DNA of 64,000 nt from an uncultured Clostridium sp. GTDB taxonomy: Bacteria; Bacillota; Clostridia; TANB77; CAG-508. The notes beneath the pieces were generated by a model. It was not told the DNA's origin, did no database searches, and was given only the letters and a program-made list of their open reading frames with translations. The stretch covers positions 4,713 to 68,712 of the forward strand of contig CAKNIZ010000005.1 in the NCBI GenBank assembly GCA_930980855.1, read 5' to 3'. The position numbers were made by a program, and so were the translations under genes. The stretch's first letter is position 1. The number at the start of each line of letters is the position of its first letter. Positions 7,960 through 62,590 of the stretch are shown one piece after another.

Positions 7960-10900
7960 CTATATTTTATTTAGGACTCTTTTTTTAATTATCCATACTG
8001 CTACTCCTATAATAGCAAGTACTCCTATAGTAATTCCGATGAAAGAAGCTACCTCTCTACCAGTTCCAAGTGTAATTAGTAAGTCTGCATAAGAAATATC
8101 ATCTTCGCCATCTTGCTTATTTCCCGCTGTAGAATCTTTATCTTCTAATCCATATTCATTATAAGATTTATTTATTTCTACTAAATTATGTACTGTTCCT
8201 GTATTTTCTCCGGTCATCTTTCTTGTTAATACTAAAGTTACTGTTTTGCTTTCTCCCGGATTTATAATTGTATTAGCTAAGCTTGTTGTATAAAGATTTC
8301 CATCACTAGCCATATACCAATTATTATTTAATTCAGAACTAAATGCCATTCCTTCTGGTAAATAATCAACTATTTCTTCTGCATATCCTGGAATTTCACC
8401 TTCATTTGTAACTGTTATATTGTATTCTACAAGTACTGTTGTATCTTCAATTTTTGTGTTATATAAATCAATTTTTCCAAAAGAACTATTAACTTCTTGT
8501 TCAATTGTTTCTATATAAGGATTTGTTGCTGTTACTTTTGAAATTGTTTTGTCAATGCTTAAGTCAAAGTTTCTTATTCTTGATAGTCCTAAGTCTAAAT
8601 TATAGAAATTGCTATTAGTAATTGTAAAGTTGTCTGTTGCAGCAACTTCTCTTCCATCTAGAGTTGCATTTACAAAATCTGAATTTTCAGATTCTGAAAT
8701 TCCTTCTGCATGATAAACTGTTACTCTATATATACTCGTATCAAATTCTGCTACAACATTATATTGTCCAGGTTTCACATTATTAAATGTGTATCTTCCA
8801 TCTTCTCCGGTTGTCATTACTAAATCATTTCCTGAAACATCTTTTGCTATTGCTCCAGTAGTAGAATCATATAACATAACTCTTATATTAGCGAATCTAG
8901 TTTCTTCTGAACTTCTTCTTCCATCATTATTTTCATCGATCCAAATGTTACCTGTAACTCTATATGTACCATCTATTGAAGGTTCATCTGCCCCGCCTTG
9001 TTCATAGTCGCCAGTTCCTTGAATTCTTACACTTGCAGAATTAATTGAAACTGCATCTCCATCTATTATTTGTAATGTTGGTTTATTTTCTACTGTAGTT
9101 TCTTGTCCTTGTGCAATAGTATTCGCTCTCGCTCTAATTGTAGCTCTAGCATTTTCTCCTGCTTTTAATGTAAAGTTAGTTTTTATAAATCCACCTGTTG
9201 AACTTGCAACTTCTTGTCCGTTAACAACTAATCTATAATTTGTAAGTCTTAATTCACTTGGAAGAGTATTTGCAAATGTTAATCTAACGTCAGTATCTCC
9301 TCTATTCTCAATATCTACGTAAAACTCAAGTTGGTCTGTGTCTATCATTGTTCCATCAGGAAGATTCGTTGACTGTTCTGCAAAAATGTCCACTCTTGAA
9401 GAATAATATGAAATGGAATTTGAAAATTCCTCTTGTCCACCATCAGAAGTTGCGCTTGCAACTACAATAGCATCGTTTGAAAGTTCTCCTGTAACTCTAC
9501 CATAGAATTGCATATATACAGTTTTTCTAGAGCTCATTTGTCCTATTGGATAACTTAATGTATTTGTTTCTTTATTATAATATTGTGTATAATCTGTTCC
9601 TGCATATTCCATTCCTTGTGGGAATTTTAAGTTAAGCACTACATTATTCTTTTCATCTCTATTAACATTTTCAAGTTCTACATCAAATGATATTAATTGG
9701 CCATTTAAAGCTTTTCCTTCTACATCTGCAACCAAACTTAATCTTACTGTTCCTTTTGTATTATGGAATGAATATTCTAATACTTGTTCAGGTGTTTGAT
9801 CTGATATCACTTTAAAAGTAGTTAATGTTTGATATGGATCTTCTTGAATATCTGGGTCTTCTTCATCTCCTGTATTATCATCAATTATTTCAATATTTCC
9901 TACATTAAATTCAAGTTCTTTCTCTTCTCCTGCTCCTAAACTTTCTATTGTTTGAACCTGTTCTGTAAGTTCATAGTTTAATCCATAGCTTCCTGGTCCT
10001 CCAGTAGAACCTTCCCTATAAACTAATGCTGCTAATTCGTCCGGCATTGTTTGAGTTACTTTTACATTTGTTGCTGGAACATCAGCATTATTTTTTACTT
10101 TTACTCTAAATTTGATATATTGCCCTTCTTTAATATCTGCTCCATTTGCTATTTGAGCTCCTGTATTAAAATCATAAGCTGTAATTTCTGCTGTAACATC
10201 TGGTTCTAATCCTGTTGTAATTCCAACTGGTGTTGCTGAAACAACATTTTGGGTTGTTCCTTCTTCTGCATCATTATCATAATATATTCCAAAATTTGAT
10301 TTTACTGTATTGTTATATTGTAAGTTTGCTGGAACGGTTACATTATAATTAAAATTGAATCTTGTTGCATTTGTCATAGCTCCATCTAATACTATTAAAT
10401 AAGATTTTGCATCTGCTGTATAATCTTTTGTCCATCCATTACTTGAATTTTGTAAATCAGCATCTGCATTTTCATTAGTAGAATAATATATAGTTCCTGT
10501 TATTCCGTCTAATGTAATTCCACTTGCAAATTTTGTATCAAAATTACTTCCTAAGTTTTCATTAGTTCCTACTTTTGTATTTCCTGAGAAAGGAATTCTT
10601 CCTAATACCTTAACTCCAGTTGCATCACTTCCTAAGTTATTAACTATTGTTCCTGTTACTTGCATTGTTTTTTCTGAAGAATTTGCTGCTATTCTTCCAA
10701 TTTCTTCATTTCCTTCTTGTGATGTAGCTTTTTCATCTCCATTATATCCAGTTAAAGAATTTATTGTAACAAATCCTGTAGGTGCTACAACGTTTACAGG
10801 GGCTTGTACAGAGTTTGTAACAGCCTCTCTTTGAACTGAATAATTATTTTGATTTGTATAGTCTAATGTAATATTTGTTTCCTTACTTGGTGCTAAATTA

Positions 10901-25786: not shown

Positions 25787-25957
25787 TTTCCACCTATTAT
25801 CTTTTATTTAAGACTCATTAATTACAAGTTTTCAGCTTTCTTACTCATCCGTAATTAATTAATATATTTACCTTAATTAGGAAGGAACAAGTCTCTTTAA
25901 TATCTAATATATTACTGTATGAATTCGCTTAAAATACATAATCCGAATTAATATTAG

Positions 25958-26093
25958 AGTGGGCCTGCATGCAATGTTGTTGTTGCTGTTTCTCGTATTG
26001 TTGTTATTGCGATTACTCGTGTAATTGTTGCTATTATTGTAGTTGCCTCCCCTGTTAACACAAGGATTGTTAGTGTTAGAGTTAGTCTCGGTT
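25958..26093 (-). repeat. DGR template repeat (TR)
   Basis: 136 bp aligning without gaps to 28412-28547. All 22 mismatches are T on the plus strand here, i.e. A on the coding strand. Read in the VR frame it carries 19 AAY codons. Confidence 0.9.
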
Positions 26094-26122: not shown

Positions 26123-27142
26123 TTATTCATTATAAAATAAATTGTTAATTAATCCTCTTACATTTGCTATTTGTATATATCCTATATGTCCACACAAATA
26201 TTTTTTTGCATCTTTATATGTTATTTTTTCATTTCTTATATTATATTTTAATACTTTTATTTTATTTTTCAATTTGCGCTTACCTTTGTCTCTAATTTTC
26301 AAATTATATTCTTTTATTTTATATCCACAAAAGTTAACTCCTTGCTTTCCTTTGAAAATTTGTGTTTTGTTATTTAGTTCTAATTGTAAATTCTCTTTTA
26401 GGAATTTTTTTATATTTTTTACTGCTTTTATTGCTTCTTCTTTAGTTGGTACTAATAAAATTTCATCGTCCATGTACCTATAATACCACTTATACTTCAA
26501 CTTTTCTTTGACATACCAGTCTAGCTCATTTAAATATATATTAGCAAACATTTGTGACGTATAATTGCCTATTGGTAAACTTTTTGCTCCTGTTTCCAAA
26601 TAATTCGAATAAATTATTTCTTTTATTAGCCACAACACTTTTTTATCTAATACTCTTCTTTTTAGTATATTTAATAATATATCTTTATCTATGCTTTGAA
26701 AAAACTTTGCTATATCCATTTTTAGTATATAATAATTCTTGTATTTATTTTTCATATGTCTCATTGCTTTTTGTACATCTAAGCATGCTTTATGCATCCC
26801 TCTTTTTTCTATACAAGCATAGCTTGTTTCTATAAATCTTGGTATATAATATGGTTTTAAAATATTGTCTACAAGCCATCTATGTACAATTCTGTCTATA
26901 TATTTTGATTTCTCTATTTTTCGTTTTTTGGGTTCATATACATAAAATGAGGTATATCCTCCATGTTTATATGTTCCAGCTTTTAAATTTTCATATATGT
27001 ATTTTATATATTCTTCTTGCTTTAAATTAAATAATATTGTTTCTTTTCTTGAAGCTTTACCTTTTCTGCTTTCTATATGTGCTTTCATTAATTTTTCATA
27101 GCTCAAATTTCTATTCCACACATTTCTAATAGTTTTTGGCAT
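26123..27142 (-). CDS. DGR-type reverse transcriptase
   Basis: 339 aa. RT motifs KMDIAKFFQSID, the DGR-diagnostic LPIGNYTSQMFANIYL ([ILV]GxxxSQ), and YMDD. Confidence 0.9.
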   Translation of the reverse strand: MPKTIRNVWNRNLSYEKLMKAHIESRKGKASRKETILFNLKQEEYIKYIYENLKAGTYKHGGYTSFYVYEPKKRKIEKSKYIDRIVHRWLVDNILKPYYIPRFIETSYACIEKRGMHKACLDVQKAMRHMKNKYKNYYILKMDIAKFFQSIDKDILLNILKRRVLDKKVLWLIKEIIYSNYLETGAKSLPIGNYTSQMFANIYLNELDWYVKEKLKYKWYYRYMDDEILLVPTKEEAIKAVKNIKKFLKENLQLELNNKTQIFKGKQGVNFCGYKIKEYNLKIRDKGKRKLKNKIKVLKYNIRNEKITYKDAKKYLCGHIGYIQIANVRGLINNLFYNE

Positions 27143-27551
27143 AGTATTTTATTAATCCTCCAAGTATTTGCCCTATTTCATATATTTGGCTCATTGCCAC
27201 ATCTAACTTATGTTCATCTATCCATTTATTTTTATACATTATTCTTAAATAAATTCTTTGACAATTAAGCATACTATCTATTCTATTTAAAATTTTTATC
27301 TTTTCATAACACTCTTCCTCTATTATTTTTTTCATAAAATCGTTTTTATCATTTTGAGACTTTACATTACTATTCTTTATTTTTATAGTTTTATTTAAAT
27401 ACATTACGTTCTCTAACATGTTATATAAACTACTTTTATATTCATTGCCAATACTAAATTTTTCCGTTCGTGGTAATTTTATTATTAGCTCTATAATATA
27501 TTGAATATATTTCTCTGATTTTGGTATTAATTTTAATTTTTCTTTTTCCAT
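27126..27551 (-). CDS. avd: Avd-like accessory variability determinant (four-helix-bundle family)
   Basis: 141 aa and helical. LPRTEKFSIGNEYKSSLYNMLENVMY matches the FPKxERFxLGxQ pattern of the Avd / 23S-IVS protein family. It overlaps the RT start by 17 nt. Confidence 0.7.
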   Translation of the reverse strand: MEKEKLKLIPKSEKYIQYIIELIIKLPRTEKFSIGNEYKSSLYNMLENVMYLNKTIKIKNSNVKSQNDKNDFMKKIIEEECYEKIKILNRIDSMLNCQRIYLRIMYKNKWIDEHKLDVAMSQIYEIGQILGGLIKYYAKNY

Positions 27552-27588
27552 GGCTTTTCCCTTTTATATTTTTATTCACTATATTTAG

Positions 27589-27990
27589 TTAGGTTTCACT
27601 AACTTCACTATTTAAATATTTCCTTATCTCTTCTCTTTCATATTGATATATTGCATTTTTACAATTCTCACATCCTAAGTTATGAATGCTTTTCATATTT
27701 TTATTTGCATCATCGAAATTTTCTTCTACCTTTAGTTCTCCATTAATATTTTTATACACAATGTAGCTTATCTCCTTTTCCTTTAATGCTACTAAATATT
27801 TATTTAGACTTCTTACAGGAACTCCCACTTTACATAAGTATTTAATAAAGCATGTACATTTTAAATTAAATAGTTCATGTAATAGTACCGCATCTTTTCC
27901 TATCGCTATATAGAAATTACCATTTTGAACAAACAATACCTTATCTCCAACTTTTTCTTTTAGTAACCTTACTTTTTCATTAAACTTCAT
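27589..27990 (-). CDS. MutS domain-I-like accessory protein (MSL-type DGR accessory ORF)
   Basis: 133 aa. VLFVQNGNFYIAIGKDAVLLHELF...CKVGVPVRSLNKYLVALKEKEISYIVY parallels MutS_I (LLFFRMGDFYELFxxDA...CGVP...YLxxLxxxGxxVAI). The Glu of the F-x-E motif is replaced. Confidence 0.55.
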   Translation of the reverse strand: MKFNEKVRLLKEKVGDKVLFVQNGNFYIAIGKDAVLLHELFNLKCTCFIKYLCKVGVPVRSLNKYLVALKEKEISYIVYKNINGELKVEENFDDANKNMKSIHNLGCENCKNAIYQYEREEIRKYLNSEVSET

Positions 27991-28055
27991 TTCTTTCTCC
28001 TTTATTTATTTTATTTTTTAGCATTTTATTACCCACTTAAAATATTTTTAAGGTG

Positions 28056-28103
28056 GCAAAGGGCTATGCATATTAAGTTCATTTAATACACATAGCCCTT
28101 TGC
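28056..28103 (-). promoter_or_regulatory. Leader hairpin upstream of msl-avd-RT (homologous to the target-gene leader hairpins)
   Basis: gcaaagggctatg(ca)tattaa ... ttaata(ca)catagccctttgc. The ca/ca mismatches become U.G and G.U wobbles only in minus-strand RNA. Confidence 0.5.
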
Positions 28104-28138
28104 TATTTTTATTTATAGATATTTTGTTAAATCTTACG

Positions 28139-28195
28139 ATATATATATATATATATATACAGCCTCAAGGCTTTCAGCGTTTTTCATATTCTTCT
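28139..28195 (-). promoter_or_regulatory. Conserved promoter module copy 1: (TA)10 tract plus TTGAGG -35-like box
   Basis: Minus strand reads cgctgaaagccTTGAGGctgt(at)10cgtaagattt. The 17-nt spacing from TTGAGG places a TATATA -10 inside the TA tract. Confidence 0.45.
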
Positions 28196-28265
28196 CTCTT
28201 TCATTTTATCTTATAAATTTTACGACTTTTGTAAATCTGTACGATTATCTTACAATCTACAATAA

Positions 28266-28399: not shown

Positions 28400-29698
28400 T
28401 TACAAATATAAAGTGGGCCTGCATGCAATGACGTTGTCGCTGTAACTCGTACTGTCGTCAGTGCGACCACTCGTGTAACTGTAGCTACTACGGTAGTTGC
28501 CTCCCCTGTTAACACAAGGAACGCCAGTGTAAGAGTAAGTCTCGGTTGTCCATTCATACGTATTTCCAGACATATCATATATATTACATCTCACATCTTT
28601 TGCTTCATCCCCACTGTCAACATTTGCTAATATACTTTCTCCTGCTTTCTGTAAAGACCTTTCTGTATTTTTTCCAATCTGTCTTGAATAATTTTTATCT
28701 CCACTACATTCTTGGATAAATACTATTGCTGTATCCCATGCATAACTATTTATTAAATCACTTGTAAAATTTGTACCACTATACATATTTTGGCATAAAC
28801 TTGCTGCTTGTAGTTGTGTTATATAATTATATGGATATACTCCTGTTTTACACACTATTGGATTCGTATCACTTGTACTAGAACCTCTTGCAGAACTTGT
28901 GGCTAGAGCATCTCCTGCTTCGTAGCGTCCTATATAATAGCCTCCATTTGCATTCGCACTATTTTTAAATGCATTTATGTCTTTCGCTATTGTATTTCCA
29001 TATCCACTTGATGCATGTTCACTCGCTGTTTCTTCTTTAAATGAACTTGAGACTTGGATGACATTTCCTGAGGTATTAAAATCATATCTTCCTAATGTTA
29101 TTGTTTTTTCTCCTTGCGAGGTTTTTATTTTTCCTACTGGTATCCATACAAATTGACTTCCTTTTGTATTAGCATCACCTGCTGATACATCTTCTATTAT
29201 TATTCCTTTTTCTACATTATCTTGTGGATTTACTACTTTGAATCCTGCAGGTATAACTACTTTATTTCCTAGACTGTCTTGAGTTTCTGTATTTTGTGTT
29301 TCGCTTCCAGTTATATCTCCTAATCCTGGGCCTGTTTTCATTGTTCCTGTTATTTTTACTCCATTTACATACGCTGTTTTCCCTTCTAATATATCTTCTG
29401 GTGTAGCTGTAGCATCTGATGTATCTAAACTTTCAAGCGTACCAGTTATTCCTCCAATTGTTACTCCTTTTCTAATGTAACTTGCCATTAGACTTGAATT
29501 TGCATTTCCTCCTGCTAAGTAATTTTCTCCTTCTGTTTCTTGGTTTACTACAACATTTCTTATTACTATACTTCCAATTATTATTCCTATTAAGGCTATT
29601 ACTGCAATTAGTATTATTAGCCTTTTCTTCTTATTGTTTTGTACTTTTCCTTCTTTTTTCATTTTTTCCTCCCTCGTATTTTTTATTTTTTCACACAA
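28400..29698 (-). CDS. DGR target protein: membrane-anchored, with a C-terminal FGE-sulfatase/C-type-lectin-fold variable domain
   Basis: 432 aa. N-terminal KK-rich tail and TM (LIILIAVIALIGIIIGSIVI). GITGT.../DIL.GKTAYVNG.KITGT repeat. C-terminus GNTYEWTTE...CVNRGGNY...ACRP is typical of the CLec fold that holds DGR VRs. Confidence 0.85.
   Translation of the reverse strand: MCEKIKNTREEKMKKEGKVQNNKKKRLIILIAVIALIGIIIGSIVIRNVVVNQETEGENYLAGGNANSSLMASYIRKGVTIGGITGTLESLDTSDATATPEDILEGKTAYVNGVKITGTMKTGPGLGDITGSETQNTETQDSLGNKVVIPAGFKVVNPQDNVEKGIIIEDVSAGDANTKGSQFVWIPVGKIKTSQGEKTITLGRYDFNTSGNVIQVSSSFKEETASEHASSGYGNTIAKDINAFKNSANANGGYYIGRYEAGDALATSSARGSSTSDTNPIVCKTGVYPYNYITQLQAASLCQNMYSGTNFTSDLINSYAWDTAIVFIQECSGDKNYSRQIGKNTERSLQKAGESILANVDSGDEAKDVRCNIYDMSGNTYEWTTETYSYTGVPCVNRGGNYRSSYSYTSGRTDDSTSYSDNVIACRPTLYL
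28412..28547 (-). repeat. DGR variable repeat (VR), last 45 codons of the target gene
   Basis: Matches the TR at 114 of 136 positions. 16 TR AAY codons and one AGA codon are altered. The 3' 19 nt (cattgcatgcaggcccact in coding sense) are invariant and are a candidate IMH. Confidence 0.9.
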
Positions 29699-29749
29699 AA
29701 AAGCTACATATTTTAAACGAATTTTAGGTTCGCCTAAAATACATAGCTT
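29695..29749 (-). promoter_or_regulatory. Terminator-like leader hairpin in the 5' UTR of the DGR target gene
   Basis: Minus RNA: aagcuauguauuuuaggcgaaccuaaaauucguuuaaaauauguagcuu followed by uuuuuug. The mismatches are wobbles only on the minus strand. It lies ~35 nt upstream of the ATG. Confidence 0.55.
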
Positions 29750-29789
29750 CTTCTCTATGTATATTTATGTTTATTTTATTAAATCCTAC

Positions 29790-29840
29790 AATATATATAT
29801 ATATATATACAGCCTCAAGGCTTTCAGCGATTTTCATGTA
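29790..29840 (-). promoter_or_regulatory. Conserved promoter module copy 2: (TA)9 tract plus TTGAGG box
   Basis: Minus strand reads cgctgaaagccTTGAGGctgt(at)9tgtaggattt. It is near-identical to copies at 28139 and 62537. Confidence 0.5.
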
Positions 29841-29967
29841 TAATTTTCACCTTTCTTTTACTAACTTATATTATCTTTATACATTTATTTCTTGCATTTG
29901 TCAATCGCTATATAAATTATTTCTAAAAAATATTTAAATTAGTATATTTTTTTATTTAATACATATA

Positions 29968-36617: not shown

Positions 36618-36648
36618 CTCGATATCCTTTCTTATATTTATTATATAT

Positions 36649-36738
36649 AATTGTATATTATAGATTTTGCAGTCACGCGCAGTTTGGAGAAGCTTTAGCT
36701 TCGACAGCAAGTGACAAAAAATCTTATAATATACAATT
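36649..36738. repeat. Family B TIR-bounded hairpin element, copy B1 (inside the acc operon, between accD and accA)
   Basis: aattgtatattatagattttgcagtcacgcgcagtttggagaagctttagcttcgacagcaagtgacaaaaaatcttataatatacaatt. Confidence 0.8.
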
Positions 36739-44548: not shown

Positions 44549-44648
44549 TTATAATAAATCGTGAATTATTATATTAGTAATAGAAAAATATATCAATCAC
44601 ATGACTATACAGTCAAAATCAAATTTTATTAAAATTCATAAATAAAAA

Positions 44649-44731
44649 TGTATATTCAAGATTTTGCAGTTTCGCGCAGCTTGGAGGGCTTTATGCCCGA
44701 CAGCAAGAAACAAAAAATCTTAGAATATACA
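44649..44731. repeat. Family B element, copy B2
   Basis: tgtatattcaagattttgcagtttcgcgcagcttggagggctttatgcccgacagcaagaaacaaaaaatcttagaatataca. Confidence 0.8.
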
Positions 44732-44764
44732 TTCCGCTTTTTATAAAAATTAATAAATAAAAAA

Positions 44765-44855
44765 ATTGTATATTTTAAGATTTTGCAGTCACGCGCAGTT
44801 TGGAGGAAAGTAATCGTTCCGACAGCAAGTGACAAAAAACTTAAAATATACAATT
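44765..44855. repeat. Family B element, copy B3
   Basis: aattgtatattttaagattttgcagtcacgcgcagtttggaggaaagtaatcgttccgacagcaagtgacaaaaaacttaaaatatacaatt. Confidence 0.8.
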
Positions 44856-58839: not shown

Positions 58840-60220
58840 TAATTAAATTAATACTTCTCTTGGGGGACAAGGAGGTATTTTATGCCAAATCAAAAACATA
58901 TGTCTTCAGAGGACCGTAATTACATCGAACAAGCTCTTAATCAAAATATGTCTTTTAAGGAGATTTCTAAGTTTCTTTGTAAGGATCCTACTACTATCGC
59001 TAAAGAAGTTAAAAAACATAAGATTAGAAAAGAACCAAATACTTTTAACAATACATCTGGAAATGTTTGTACTAAAAGATTTCTTTGTGAAAAGAAAAAC
59101 GTTTGTGGGCTTAATTGTACTAAGAAATGTGCTCGCTGTGACAAGTGTAATAAGTTTTGTAGTGACTTTGAAGAAGAGATCTGCCCTGCTTTAAAAACTG
59201 CTCCTTATGTTTGTAATCCTTGTAAAAATAAAGGCTCTTGTAGATTAGTTAAGTTTTACTATCGTGCTATGCCTTCATTTAAGCAGTATAAAAATCTTTT
59301 ATCTACTTCTAGACAAGGTCCTAATATTTCTGATGAAGAATTAACTGAATTAGACAATTTAGTATCTCCTGCATTGAAGGATGGTCAGAGTCTATCTCAC
59401 ATCTTCGACACTCAAGAAATTCCTTGTTGTAAAACCACTCTTTACAATTATGTTTCTGCTAATTTACTTACTGCTAGAAATATTGACCTTCCTAGAAAAG
59501 TTAGGATGTCTTCTAGAAAATCTAAACGTTCTACTCCTAAAGATTCTGCTATTCGTAAAGGTAGAACTTATCAAGATTTTCAAAAATATTTGTTAGATAA
59601 TCCAGATACTTCTGTTGTTGAAATGGATACTGTCGAAGGCAAAAAAGGTGGTAAAGTTTTACTTACTTTTCTTTTTAGAAATTCTAAGCTTATGTTAGCT
59701 TTCATTATGGATGACAAAACTTCTAATTCTGTATTAAAAGTATTTAACTGGTTAGAAGGTATTTTAGGTAATGAACTTTTTGAAAAAACTTTTCCTGTTA
59801 TTCTTACAGACAATGGTTCAGAATTTTCTAATCCACTTAGCCTAGAATTTAACAATGAAGGCATTGGTAGAACTAGAATATTCTTTTGTGACCCTTCTGC
59901 TTCTTACCAAAAAGGATCCATTGAGAAGAACCACGAATTTATTAGATATGTACTACCTAAAGGATATTCTTTTGATGAACTTAATCAAAAGGATATTACG
60001 AAAATGATTAACCACATAAATAGCTATTCTAGGATAAGTCTGAACCATTCTACACCATTTGACCTAGCTTCACTTTTGTTAGACAAAAGAGTAATAAAAA
60101 AGTTAGATCTCACAAAGGTACCAGCCAATGAGATCCAACTCAAACCAAAACTACTAAAGAAAAAATAAAATAATTTTTTAATAAATTTAACCCCCAAGTG
60201 AAGTAGAGTAAATTTATTTT
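58840..60220 (+). mobile_element. IS30-family insertion sequence (approximate ends)
   Basis: Inverted repeats tacttctcttgggggacaa (58852-58870) and ttaacccccaagtgaagta (60187-60205) match 16/19 when reverse complemented. They tightly bracket the transposase ORF. Confidence 0.6.
58882..60168 (+). CDS. IS30-family transposase
   Basis: 428 aa. N-terminal HTH (MSFKEISKFLCKDPTTIAKEVKKH), a Cys-rich insert, and DDE region DNGSEFSNP...YQKGSIEKNHEFIRYVLPKG. Confidence 0.8.
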   Translation: MPNQKHMSSEDRNYIEQALNQNMSFKEISKFLCKDPTTIAKEVKKHKIRKEPNTFNNTSGNVCTKRFLCEKKNVCGLNCTKKCARCDKCNKFCSDFEEEICPALKTAPYVCNPCKNKGSCRLVKFYYRAMPSFKQYKNLLSTSRQGPNISDEELTELDNLVSPALKDGQSLSHIFDTQEIPCCKTTLYNYVSANLLTARNIDLPRKVRMSSRKSKRSTPKDSAIRKGRTYQDFQKYLLDNPDTSVVEMDTVEGKKGGKVLLTFLFRNSKLMLAFIMDDKTSNSVLKVFNWLEGILGNELFEKTFPVILTDNGSEFSNPLSLEFNNEGIGRTRIFFCDPSASYQKGSIEKNHEFIRYVLPKGYSFDELNQKDITKMINHINSYSRISLNHSTPFDLASLLLDKRVIKKLDLTKVPANEIQLKPKLLKKK

Positions 60221-60390
60221 CATAACCTAACGGGTGAAATTTAGTTTTAAAAATTCTATTCCAGTCGTTTATTAACTATGCTCTCATTTTAAATTTTCTT
60301 CGTACTAATAATATTATACTATATTTTTTCAGCAAATTTCAACTATCTTTAATCAATTATTTGGTTTCAAACTGAAGGTTAGTCAATCAT

Positions 60391-61502
60391 ATGTCACACT
60401 TTTTTGAAAAATATATACTTTGAGTACTCTATATTGTTATAACCGATTCTTCTTGACTTTTATATCTTCTTAGAAATTCCTTTGGACTCAACCAGCCTAG
60501 AGGTCTCATTGGAAAATTATTATATTCTTTTCTCCAATCTGCTCCTCTATTTCTTAAATCTTCTAAACTACAAAATACCTTATTGTAGTAAAACCTTTCT
60601 TGGTCTTTTCTATGACTTCTTTCTACTCTTCCGTTTTGCTTTGGTGTGTGTGGTTTTATTACTTTGTAATCTATCTTTAATTCTTCTAACGTTTTCTCAA
60701 ACAATGTCTTCTTATTCTTTAAAAATGCCTGCCAACTTAGTCTATTTGTGAATTCAAACCCATTATCTGTTTGTATTGTTTTTATTTCTATATCGTATTG
60801 TTCTCTAAAATATTTTACCATCCTTTTTACAAATTCACTGGACATATATGTACTGTGTTCATTTGTATACCATATATATCTTATTCTCGTGAATTCGTCT
60901 ATTCCTGTATATTGATAATATTTTTCTCCCATTTTTTGCAGTTCCGGACTCATACATTTCTTTGGTACATATTTTACATCTACTTGTACTTTTTCCCCCG
61001 GATATGTTCCTACTACCCATTCACATGCTTCTCTTTCTTTTTTCTTACTTGGTGCTTTATTATATATTCCTAGTCGTTGTAGCACATGATACAATCCTTG
61101 CACCGTTCTCCTATAGCCTGCTTCTCTTAACTTTATCCATAATACAACCAATCCAGTATCTTTATTATTATTTTTATAGTTCTTAATCATTTTTATCTCT
61201 TCTTCTGTGTGTTGATTTGGATGATAATGTGGCTTTCTTGACTTATCTTTTAAACTTTCTATACTTCCGTCATATCTTTTTCTCCATCTGTATATTGTTC
61301 TTCTGCATTCACAAAATTTAATTGATGCTTTTGTCACTCCATATTTATATGAAAATTTTACTACAGACTCTTTATATTTTAACTTTTGTGTGATATTATT
61401 ACCCATAGAGAGTGCCTCCAATACTGTTTATTTGTGGTTATTTAAACAATATCATTTTTGGTACTCTCTTTCAATATTTTATTTTCAATTTTCTTGTGAC
61501 AT
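60391..61502 (-). mobile_element. IS481-family insertion sequence
   Basis: The termini atgtcaca...tgtgacat are TGT/ACA-type. The extended imperfect IR is tgtcacacttttttgaaaaata... versus rc tgtcacaagaaaattgaaaata.... No clear target duplication. Confidence 0.65.
60429..61406 (-). CDS. IS481-family transposase (HTH plus rve integrase core)
   Basis: Start MGNNITQ at 61406, 8 nt after GGAGG. DDE core motifs VQVDVKY, QTDNGFEF, and KPHTPKQNGRVERSHR. Confidence 0.8.
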   Translation of the reverse strand: MGNNITQKLKYKESVVKFSYKYGVTKASIKFCECRRTIYRWRKRYDGSIESLKDKSRKPHYHPNQHTEEEIKMIKNYKNNNKDTGLVVLWIKLREAGYRRTVQGLYHVLQRLGIYNKAPSKKKEREACEWVVGTYPGEKVQVDVKYVPKKCMSPELQKMGEKYYQYTGIDEFTRIRYIWYTNEHSTYMSSEFVKRMVKYFREQYDIEIKTIQTDNGFEFTNRLSWQAFLKNKKTLFEKTLEELKIDYKVIKPHTPKQNGRVERSHRKDQERFYYNKVFCSLEDLRNRGADWRKEYNNFPMRPLGWLSPKEFLRRYKSQEESVITI

Positions 61503-61696: not shown

Positions 61697-62398
61697 TTAT
61701 CCTATTGCTACATAAGTATAAGTTGTACCAGTTGGAATACAAGGATGATTACTCTCTGTGTCAGATGTAAGTCGAAATCCATTTGCCAATGGTTCAATAA
61801 AATAACTACTTTCCTCCATACTATCATATCCACTTTCCCTTTCAGATACATACATAGCGTACCCTTGTCCATTATTATAAATAATTTGAGAATCATAAGA
61901 ATACAACATTACAGCTGTTATTCTAAATCCACAATTTACATCTACAGGTCTGCTTAATGACATCACTGTTCCAGTTGCTACTTTACTTCCCGGCGACAAA
62001 GTTCCAGTTATTTTATTTCCATTAACATATGCCGTTTTTCCAGTTAATATATCTTGTGCAGTTGCCGTCGCATCAGACGTATTTAATGGTACTAACGTCC
62101 CTGTTATTTTACTACCTTTTACATAGGCTGTTTTATTTGCCACTATATCTTCTGGTGCTGCATTCGCATCTGATGTATCTAAACTTTCTAGTGTCCCTGT
62201 TATTCCTCCTATTGTTACCCCTTTTTTTATGTTATTCGCTATTAAATTTGAATTTTTATTTTCGCCTATCAAGTATTTTTCATTTTTTGTTTCTTGATTT
62301 ACAACAAATCTTCTTATTAATATACTTCCAATTATTATTCCTATTAAAATTATAACTGTTATTAATATCATTATTTTTTTATTGTTTTTCTTCATCAC
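61697..62398 (-). CDS. Membrane-anchored paralog of the DGR target N-terminus (no CLec/VR domain)
   Basis: 233 aa. Residues ~1-110 are collinear with the DGR target (TM, VVNQET, KGVTIGGITGTLESLDTSDA..PEDI...KTAYV.G.KITGT). It has an extra repeat unit and an unrelated C-terminus. Confidence 0.7.
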   Translation of the reverse strand: MMKKNNKKIMILITVIILIGIIIGSILIRRFVVNQETKNEKYLIGENKNSNLIANNIKKGVTIGGITGTLESLDTSDANAAPEDIVANKTAYVKGSKITGTLVPLNTSDATATAQDILTGKTAYVNGNKITGTLSPGSKVATGTVMSLSRPVDVNCGFRITAVMLYSYDSQIIYNNGQGYAMYVSERESGYDSMEESSYFIEPLANGFRLTSDTESNHPCIPTGTTYTYVAIG

Positions 62399-62444: not shown

Positions 62445-62498
62445 AAGAAGCTATATATTTTAGACAAATTTAAATTCGTCTAAAATACATAGCTTCTT
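62445..62498 (-). promoter_or_regulatory. Leader hairpin, homolog of 29695-29749
   Basis: aagaagctatatatttta ... taaaatacatagcttctt. The single mismatch is a G.U wobble only in minus-strand RNA. Confidence 0.5.
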
Positions 62499-62536
62499 TT
62501 CTATGATTAATCATGTTTATTCTATTAAAACTTACG

Positions 62537-62590
62537 ATATATATATATATATATATACAGCCTCAAGGCTTCTATCCATTTTCATATCCT
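62537..62590 (-). promoter_or_regulatory. Conserved promoter module copy 3: (TA)10 plus TTGAGG box
   Basis: Minus strand reads gaagccTTGAGGctgt(at)10cgtaagtttt. Confidence 0.45.

Follow-up and report, generated by a model that had tools for sequence, protein, structure and literature searches.

Why should one short block of sequence stand in front of both the target gene and the reverse transcriptase (RT) operon of a diversity-generating retroelement (DGR)? The block occurs in a 64,000-nucleotide stretch of DNA from an uncultured Clostridium sp. (GenBank assembly GCA_930980855.1, contig CAKNIZ010000005.1, positions 4,713 to 68,712; this whole stretch is referred to as the window, and coordinates are those of the window unless another locus is named), where one copy precedes the DGR target gene, another precedes the operon encoding the DGR accessory proteins and RT, and a third precedes a paralog that is N-terminally related to the target. 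A first-pass annotation had interpreted the block as a promoter containing a TA-dinucleotide tract and had suggested that it co-regulates diversifier and substrate. Our analysis leads to a different reading: we consider it likely that the block belongs to a (TA)n leader-peptide/terminator phase switch of surface-protein genes, which here include the DGR target and the RT operon.

A scan of the window for AGCCTTGAGGCTG(TA)n returned exactly three matches, every one on the minus strand, where the chance expectation is 0. In this window, whose G+C content is 29%, there are no tracts of (TA)≥6 besides these three. About 96 nt can be aligned between the three blocks (repeat family D2) at 69-82% identity, and the scan recovered both the shared block at three loci and the TA counts of 10, 9 and 10 that had been noted in the first pass. 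The parts of the three copies are listed below, where n is the number of TA units, plus signs give distances in nucleotides after the tract, and f0, f1 and f2 are the frames in which ribosomes would leave the tract when n equals 1, 2 or 0 (mod 3), respectively.

Copy 1, 28208 to 28235, minus strand: candidate promoter TTTACA-16-TAAGAT, weak alone (9/12 in the consensus scan), at a position matching the TATAAT box of other copies.
Copy 1, 28134 to 28187, minus strand: leader open reading frame (ORF) in its present frame (n = 10), encoding MKNAESLEAVYIYIYIS and then a stop; predicted OFF; precedes the MutS_I-bAvd-RT operon.
Copy 1, 28140 to 28159, minus strand: (TA)10 tract, coding for (Tyr-Ile)n.
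Copy 1, 28127 to 28136, minus strand: double stop, TAA in f0 at +3 and TAA in f1 at +10.
Copy 1, 28034 to 28103, minus strand: hairpin of 21 bp (28056-28103) and a small second hairpin (28034-28055), with the U run absent.
Copy 2, 29876 to 29904, minus strand: candidate promoter TTGACA-17-TATAAA, read from the sequence, in the same position as the -10 box of loci L009 and L026 in other assemblies.
Copy 2, 29724 to 29837, minus strand: leader ORF in its present frame, f2 (n = 9), encoding the 37-amino-acid peptide MKIAESLEAVYIYIYIVGFNKININIHREEAMYFRRT and then a stop; predicted ON; precedes the DGR target.
Copy 2, 29792 to 29809, minus strand: (TA)9 tract.
Copy 2, 29696 to 29748, minus strand: intrinsic terminator, with a stem at 29702-29748 (at least 20 pairs) and U6 at 29696-29701.
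Copy 3, 62532 to 62585, minus strand: leader ORF in its present frame (n = 10), encoding MKMDRSLEAVYIYIYIS and then a stop; predicted OFF; precedes the paralog at 61697-62398.
Copy 3, 62538 to 62557, minus strand: (TA)10 tract.
Copy 3, 62448 to 62495, minus strand: terminator-like hairpin, followed by CUUUGCG; f2 would stop in the loop at +65.

To this locus we added copies from other genomes. A genome scan with the exact core, using one genome per species, identified 78 loci in approximately 20 metagenome-assembled genomes (MAGs) of uncultured Clostridia; the maximum was 20 copies in a single MAG, and numerous contigs terminate in the block. Another 48 loci, part of them from human gut assemblies, came from a metagenome scan, and a second genome scan, in which the tract plus TCGTARRWTTTAA served as the pattern and the core was not demanded, gave more than 60 further loci among the matches listed. 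The pooled set, drawn from fetched loci of related gut Clostridia MAGs and metagenomes, comprises at least 177 distinct copies, and with up to 20 of these in one MAG the block can no longer be regarded as a part specific to this DGR. Metagenomes were also searched for the copy-2 leader, allowing a variable gap, in order to recover strain variants of this one locus, and nothing was found. In Rfam 15 the module is without a gathering-level match, the best E-value being that of sau-5971, which scores 30.7 bits where the gathering score is 90. The k-mer depth of the block in run X1 is about 1550 (28113-28183) and about 380 (29746-29816) versus about 30 in unique flanks, a 13-50-fold excess that agrees with multiple copies in each genome and the presence of several related strains in a sample. 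Logan contigs of both DNA and RNA runs are interrupted at the tract, since the 45-nt core is repeated.

The region upstream of the tract resembles the start of a translated gene. An in-frame ATG with no intervening stop is found in 168 of the 177 distinct copies and an RBS-like motif (ribosome-binding site) in 149; among 82 distinct upstream regions, 80 have an AGGAG-type motif of this kind before the ATG and 49 contain a perfect TATAAT (background 8%), often extended by TGn and mostly ending 24-28 nt before the leader ATG. In copy 1, the RBS-like GAGAGAAG lies 5 nt before the ATG. After the start codon come 4-6 variable codons and then GAA AGC CTT GAG GCT GTA (TAT ATA)n, giving a leader ORF with the consensus M-x-K-x-A-E-S-L-E-A-V-(Y-I)n, in which tracts of (TA)7-18 are in frame as (YI)n. 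Variants of the core act as codon variants (SLEA, SLGA, TLEA, SLDT, TVGA and SLAA). We also considered the palindrome AGCCT-TG-AGGCT as an essential protein-binding site or small hairpin, and rejected it since core variants, for example AGCCTTGATACTG, break the palindrome. To judge by these start signals, the block is probably the body of a small translated leader gene rather than a promoter.

Downstream of the tract, the three reading frames have very different fates. The tract is directly followed by TCGTAAGATTTAA, which in the frame set by n = 1 (mod 3) reads TCG TAA, with a stop at +3 and a peptide end of ...YIYIYIS, and in the frame set by n = 2 (mod 3) reads TAT CGT AAG ATT TAA, with a stop at +10 and the end ...YRKI; with n = 0 (mod 3) the frame continues for 20-30 extra residues. 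Both early stops, at +3 in f0 and +10 in f1, are present in 63 of 69 copies collected without any downstream constraint and, among the new metagenome copies, in 32 of 34. These are the unbiased figures, since the pattern of the second genome scan pre-selects both early stops; the complete architecture is found in 147 of 155 full copies, a pooled figure that includes such pre-selected copies. The early stops are retained despite base differences, TAA, TAG and TGA all occurring. Over the interval from +13 to +53, 64 distinct sequences contain 7 stop codons in f2 versus 88 and 151 in the other frames, and f2 is open throughout in 60 of the 64, the corresponding numbers being 9 and 3 in the other frames; shuffles would leave f2 open in 22%; it is also open in 14 of 18 clusters that are less than 70% identical. 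The f2 stop is located between +53 and +116, in the 5′ arm, loop or 3′ arm of the hairpin or just past it. Copy 1 would stop in this frame at 28048-28050, within its second hairpin, and the leader ORF of copy 2 stops in the loop of the terminator.

The length of the tract varies between assemblies. Locus pairs from independent assemblies were matched by gapped alignment, and 7 of 17 pairs with flanks at least 93% identical differ in n (10/9, 15/9, 9/10, 10/8, 8/10, 8/10 and 10/9), several of them with 100% identical flanks. This bears out the proposal made in the first pass that the TA tract is variable in length, and it makes phase variation plausible. At the copy-2 position, the orthologues in loci L009 and L121 have n = 15 and n = 9, respectively, both in the read-through frame as in the window, and the copy-1 orthologues have n = 10 in both of these loci. 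Across 168 copies, n is distributed as 7 (2 copies), 8 (23), 9 (15), 10 (116), 11 (7), 12 (3), 15 (1) and 18 (1), so that the +3-stop frame accounts for 70% of copies, the +10-stop frame for 18% and the read-through frame for 12%.

Folding confirmed that each block in the window is followed by a long hairpin, of 21-26 bp (28056-28103, 29702-29748 and 62448-62495), with energies of -29 to -35 kcal/mol and z-scores of -6.1 to -7.4 compared with shuffles. The imperfect stem positions are G.U or U.G only in minus-strand RNA and are fully paired in the minimum-free-energy structures, which supports the earlier suggestion that the hairpin acts in the gene-sense transcript. At the target-gene copy, the U6 run that had been noted about 35 nt before the ATG lies 34 nt before the ATG at 29662, and this run together with the canonical stem agrees with a terminator- or attenuator-like hairpin. 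Since the U run is only 34 nt from the target ATG, there is no room for a separate promoter. Most copies have a run of 4-8 T directly behind the stem, and in a 59-copy alignment the base of the stem covaries (A-U/G-C, 32/19; C-G/U-G/U-A, 25/18/16). A CAUAG box (TTATGTRAACATAG) is nearly invariant at about +32, for example at 29755-29759 and 62501-62505 on the minus strand. An antiterminator helix between this box and CUAUG, at the base of the 5′ arm of the terminator, was considered and rejected: 91% of cells are paired, yet the changes are one-sided G.U changes, like those in shuffles.

The cassette is always oriented like the gene downstream and lies directly before a surface-protein gene. 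At nearly every copy, the first downstream ORF encodes an N-terminal hydrophobic anchor, many of these being pilin-like (...GITLIALVVTIIVLLILAG...), and Pfam analysis identified variable ectodomains that include BspA-type leucine-rich repeats (E = 1e-74), GLUG, coiled coil and DGR-target domains that match FGE-sulfatase weakly. Genes of this kind are typical targets of phase variation.

Direct observation covers the architecture and its conservation, the bias in reading frame and the polymorphism of the tract, and the proposed mechanism builds on them as follows. The cassette would consist of a sigma-A-type promoter, an RBS, a short leader ORF (7-10 codons, GTA and (TAT ATA)n), a double stop that closes two of the three frames at 3 or 10 nt and a long terminator hairpin that is entered by the third frame. 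Through replication slippage, TA units would be gained or lost, and this would shift the reading frame of ribosomes exiting the tract. When n is 1 or 2 (mod 3), the ribosome would be released approximately 30-40 nt before the hairpin, the terminator would form and the gene would be poorly transcribed (OFF); when n is 0 (mod 3), the ribosome would enter the 5′ arm and loop of the hairpin and block folding, and RNA polymerase would read through (ON). We infer translation of the leader and termination at the hairpin, and the ON/OFF polarity is assigned by analogy with Streptococcus gallolyticus pil1. By this analogy, the n = 9 tract in the window predicts an ON state for the DGR target, and the n = 10 tracts predict an OFF state for both the MutS_I-Avd-RT operon and the paralog. 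Contigs from two chicken-gut metatranscriptomes have a depth of about 2-10x over the body of the target gene and 0 over the accessory operon and the paralog, contig depth being a poor measure; this coverage is weakly consistent with the predicted states, for which the n values (9, 10 and 10) are those of the window.

The closest precedent is provided by the pil1 and pil3 loci of S. gallolyticus, in which GCAGA repeats in a leader peptide act together with a premature terminator, as demonstrated genetically (Danne et al., 2014; PMC3894217). At these loci, short peptides that stop at least 28 nt before the terminator give low expression and long peptides that stop within or after it give high expression, an effect that needs translation and vanishes when the terminator is deleted (PMC3894217). 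The order of promoter, repeat-bearing short leader ORF, intrinsic terminator and surface-structure genes is shared with these loci, as is the principle that the repeat number sets the frame, short peptides stopping tens of nucleotides before the hairpin and long ones within or after it. A leader ORF with start signals, a variable repeat, a terminator and a frame-dependent stop position are likewise all found in the sequence of our cassettes. However, no sequence similarity to pil1/pil3 is evident, and the repeat is a dinucleotide, (TA)8-12, rather than a pentanucleotide present in 13-22 copies. Both out-of-frame states give long peptides at pil1, whereas here a conserved double stop closes two frames and one reads through. 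There are two loci, pil1 and pil3, in S. gallolyticus but up to 20 cassettes in one MAG here, and the present system differs further in its hosts, which are uncultured gut Clostridia, in its cargo, to which the target and the reverse-transcriptase operon of a DGR belong, and in being known from sequence.

Other regulatory systems share single elements with this design. The trp and pyrBI leaders of Escherichia coli are controlled by ribosome-mediated transcription attenuation, and with these the cassette would share the principle that the position of the leader ribosome decides whether the terminator folds, the ribosome reading into the terminator as in pyrBI; however, the input to trp and pyrBI is the supply of charged tRNA or nucleotides, whereas here it would be a heritable change in DNA length, and there is no convincing antiterminator helix. 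In Clostridioides difficile, phase variation of the surface protein CwpV reportedly occurs by site-specific DNA inversion, without a repeat or leader peptide. Common to cwpV and the switch proposed here is surface-protein phase variation in Clostridia via terminator formation in the 5′ leader.

Several observations weigh against the proposed switch, or at least against its simplest form. The value n = 10 in 116 of the 168 copies is more uniform than free drift would give. The hairpin of copy 1 has no U run and that of copy 3 is followed by only UUU (CUUUG), making termination at these two copies less certain. The leader core (1-36 nt before the tract) is most conserved at third codon positions (88-100%): the loci found without requiring the core (L127-L189) share the skeleton A-A-A-S-C-S-T-T-G-N-N-R-C-T-G, and their first and second codon positions vary, exchanging S/T, L/V, E/G/D/A and A/T. 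Such third-position conservation implies a constraint at the nucleotide level beyond both peptide selection and the frame model. Moreover, tight coupling of translation and transcription is not universal in Firmicutes. The conservation of the core, the CAUAG box and the preference for n = 10 hint at an added layer, for example control of the slippage rate, pausing or a trans-acting factor.

Among the other explanations, the one that survives best, although we judge it unlikely, is an ordinary leader that does not switch, whether constitutive or a Tyr/Ile-sensing attenuator, or simply a 5′ untranslated region with a hairpin, in which case the TA differences would be neutral or assembly errors. 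The peptide is indeed rich in Tyr and Ile, pairing of the CAUAG box with the terminator's 5′ arm would be possible at the frequency given above, and n = 10 dominates. However, ribosomes halting at +3 or +10 stop short of the CAUAG box, so that stalling gives no obvious structural switch, and the helix formed by this box shows no real covariation. The downstream genes encode surface proteins rather than functions in Tyr/Ile metabolism, and a non-switching leader leaves unaccounted for the arrangement in which one frame is open into the terminator and two are closed at once. As for assembly errors, tracts of 20 nt are well below read length and differ between assemblies with identical flanks.

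Quite unlikely, in our estimate, is a stand-alone gene that ends in a terminator of its own, codes for a small (Tyr-Ile)n protein, such as a membrane, amyloid-like or signalling peptide, and lies upstream of independently transcribed genes. The high conservation of the core and the complete set of promoter, RBS, ORF and terminator would suit such a gene. Yet the C-terminus of the peptide shifts with n (ending in S, in YRKI or in 20-30 extra residues), and the pattern of most-conserved third codon positions, with replacements at the first and second, is unlike selection at the protein level; together these two features make a stand-alone peptide gene improbable. Nor does it fit the fixed orientation before a surface-protein gene, or copy 2, where space for a second promoter is lacking.

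We consider very unlikely the interpretation of the first-pass annotation, in which the block itself is the promoter, with TTGAGG as its -35 and a TATATA-type -10 inside the tract, and TA slippage modulates promoter strength. In its favour, TTGAGG-17-TATATT scores 9/12 in copy 2, and TTG is kept in most copies, core variants included. However, a score of 9/12 is at chance level, the consensus scan giving 13 matches versus 10.6 expected in DNA of this G+C content, and the would-be -10 is mostly TATATA or TATATC, without the final T. A better promoter-like box, the conserved TATAAT, lies about 60 nt upstream of the tract together with the RBS and in-frame ATG, which places the tract in an ORF rather than inside a promoter; this conserved upstream ATG and RBS identify TTGAGG as Leu-Glu codons of the leader ORF. 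The hexamer is not invariant, TTGGGG, TTGATA and TTGCAG being seen as codon variants, and the core codon variants abolish hexamer and palindrome alike. Metatranscriptome contigs bearing the block continue upstream of it, across the RBS and ATG, and a promoter gives no meaning to the frame-specific downstream stops. The model for this interpretation is hifA/hifB of Haemophilus influenzae, in which phase variation is reportedly brought about by slipped-strand changes in a TA-repeat promoter of approximately 9-11 units. A (TA)n tract of similar length before surface-structure genes is common to both systems, but the hif tract is the -35/-10 spacer, where length changes the promoter geometry, whereas here it lies inside a leader ORF downstream of the promoter, where length modulo 3 matters. 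The tract is not located between a functional -35 and -10 whose spacing its length would change, and with the proposed -10 inside the tract, tract length would not alter that spacing.

A dispersed repeat or recombination substrate without a regulatory role, either element-like in the manner of miniature inverted-repeat transposable elements or a site of gene conversion or shuffling among surface-protein genes, would explain the many copies per genome, the many contigs terminating in the block and a core more conserved than its flanks, but is highly improbable given that terminal inverted repeats and target duplications are not evident in the alignments, that orientation to the downstream gene is fixed, that contig breaks are expected of any 45-nt repeat in short-read assembly and that the frame-specific design is left unaccounted for.

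With the leader-peptide switch as the likeliest reading, we turn to the DGR whose genes two of the copies precede. The window contains an RT, an Avd protein and a template repeat/variable repeat (TR/VR) pair differing at TR adenines, encoded as follows.

28400 to 29662, minus strand: DGR target gene, with an N-terminal membrane anchor and a C-terminal domain; VR at approximately 28409-28547.
26123 to 27990, minus strand: DGR accessory operon downstream of copy 1, comprising MutS_I (27589-27990), bAvd (27126-27551) and RT (26123-27142), assigned by Pfam (RVT_1, bAvd and MutS_I).

The TR/VR repeat is 139 nt long; 26 mismatches fall on adenines of the TR, and differences at other bases are confined to the ends of the alignment. 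Assignment of the target to the DGR relies on this pair and not on the Pfam match to FGE-sulfatase, which at 19.7 bits is under the Pfam cut-off of 23.3. A DGR-associated structured RNA, RT-14 (RF02921), is located at 25817-25959 on the minus strand (94 bits, where the gathering score is 48); one end of the match falls inside the 3′ end of the TR (approximately 25955-26093), and the match extends approximately 140 nt downstream of the TR and the RT gene. Depth of metagenome DNA contigs over part of the VR (28468-28538) is about 0-0.8 in three of four runs compared with 5-15x in the flanks, and the fourth DNA run has alternative alleles at 28444-28452, which is consistent with a VR that is actively diversifying in natural populations. 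The two-cassette DGR layout is also present in L009 and L121. In locus L085, where the DGR is more divergent (61% identity in the MutS_I protein), a partly decayed cassette precedes the accessory operon: in this variant, at 10390-10510 of that locus on the minus strand and upstream of the MutS_I-Avd-RT operon, (TA)10 is followed by ATAAGATTTATT instead of TCGTAAGATTTAA, so the canonical double stop is lost and the cassette may be a decayed or locked copy. The proposed co-regulation of diversifier and substrate is supported in so far as the two share a regulatory leader and phase variation is plausible, but the module is not DGR-specific and is mostly found before surface-protein genes.

Two further features of the window were recorded. 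Two transposase-like ORFs (428 amino acids on the plus strand and 330 on the minus strand, within 58882-61421) lie between a tRNA/signal recognition particle RNA region and the copy-3 paralog, suggesting that the paralog locus may have been rearranged. A repeat of approximately 105 nt containing GATTTTGCAGTCACGCGCAGTTTGGAG...CGACAGCAAGTGACAAAAAATCTTA is present in three copies (36628-36735, 44625-44731 and 44744-44853; families D4 and D6), and has no Rfam match at gathering level.

In the literature that we searched, no (TA)n leader-ORF switch is described for Clostridia, and S. gallolyticus was the only precedent found for a switch that combines a leader-peptide repeat with a terminator. The kind of mechanism is therefore known from S. 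gallolyticus, and what is new here is the repeat class, the double-stop design with one ON and two OFF frames, the genome-scale use, the hosts and the coupling to a DGR. If the cassette works as proposed, this type of switch would be a general, independently evolved strategy, deployed on a genome scale in abundant uncultured Clostridia of the chicken and human gut. The combination of (TA)n in an upstream ORF of 15-40 codons, a double stop and a terminator would flag phase-variable surface genes in metagenomes, and, if the switch is real, their ON/OFF state would be readable from n modulo 3. The cassette is also small enough for use as a synthetic stochastic switch, its design being compact and portable. 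More tentatively, and with rather less confidence than we place in the switch itself, a lineage of uncultured gut Clostridia may practise genome-wide combinatorial phase variation, in which at least 20 independent cassettes per genome each stochastically gate another surface protein, one cassette gating the DGR operon, with hypermutation confined to a subpopulation, and a second independently gating the target. Stochastic expression switching would then be linked with DGR hypermutation, and DGR activity itself would possibly be phase-variable.

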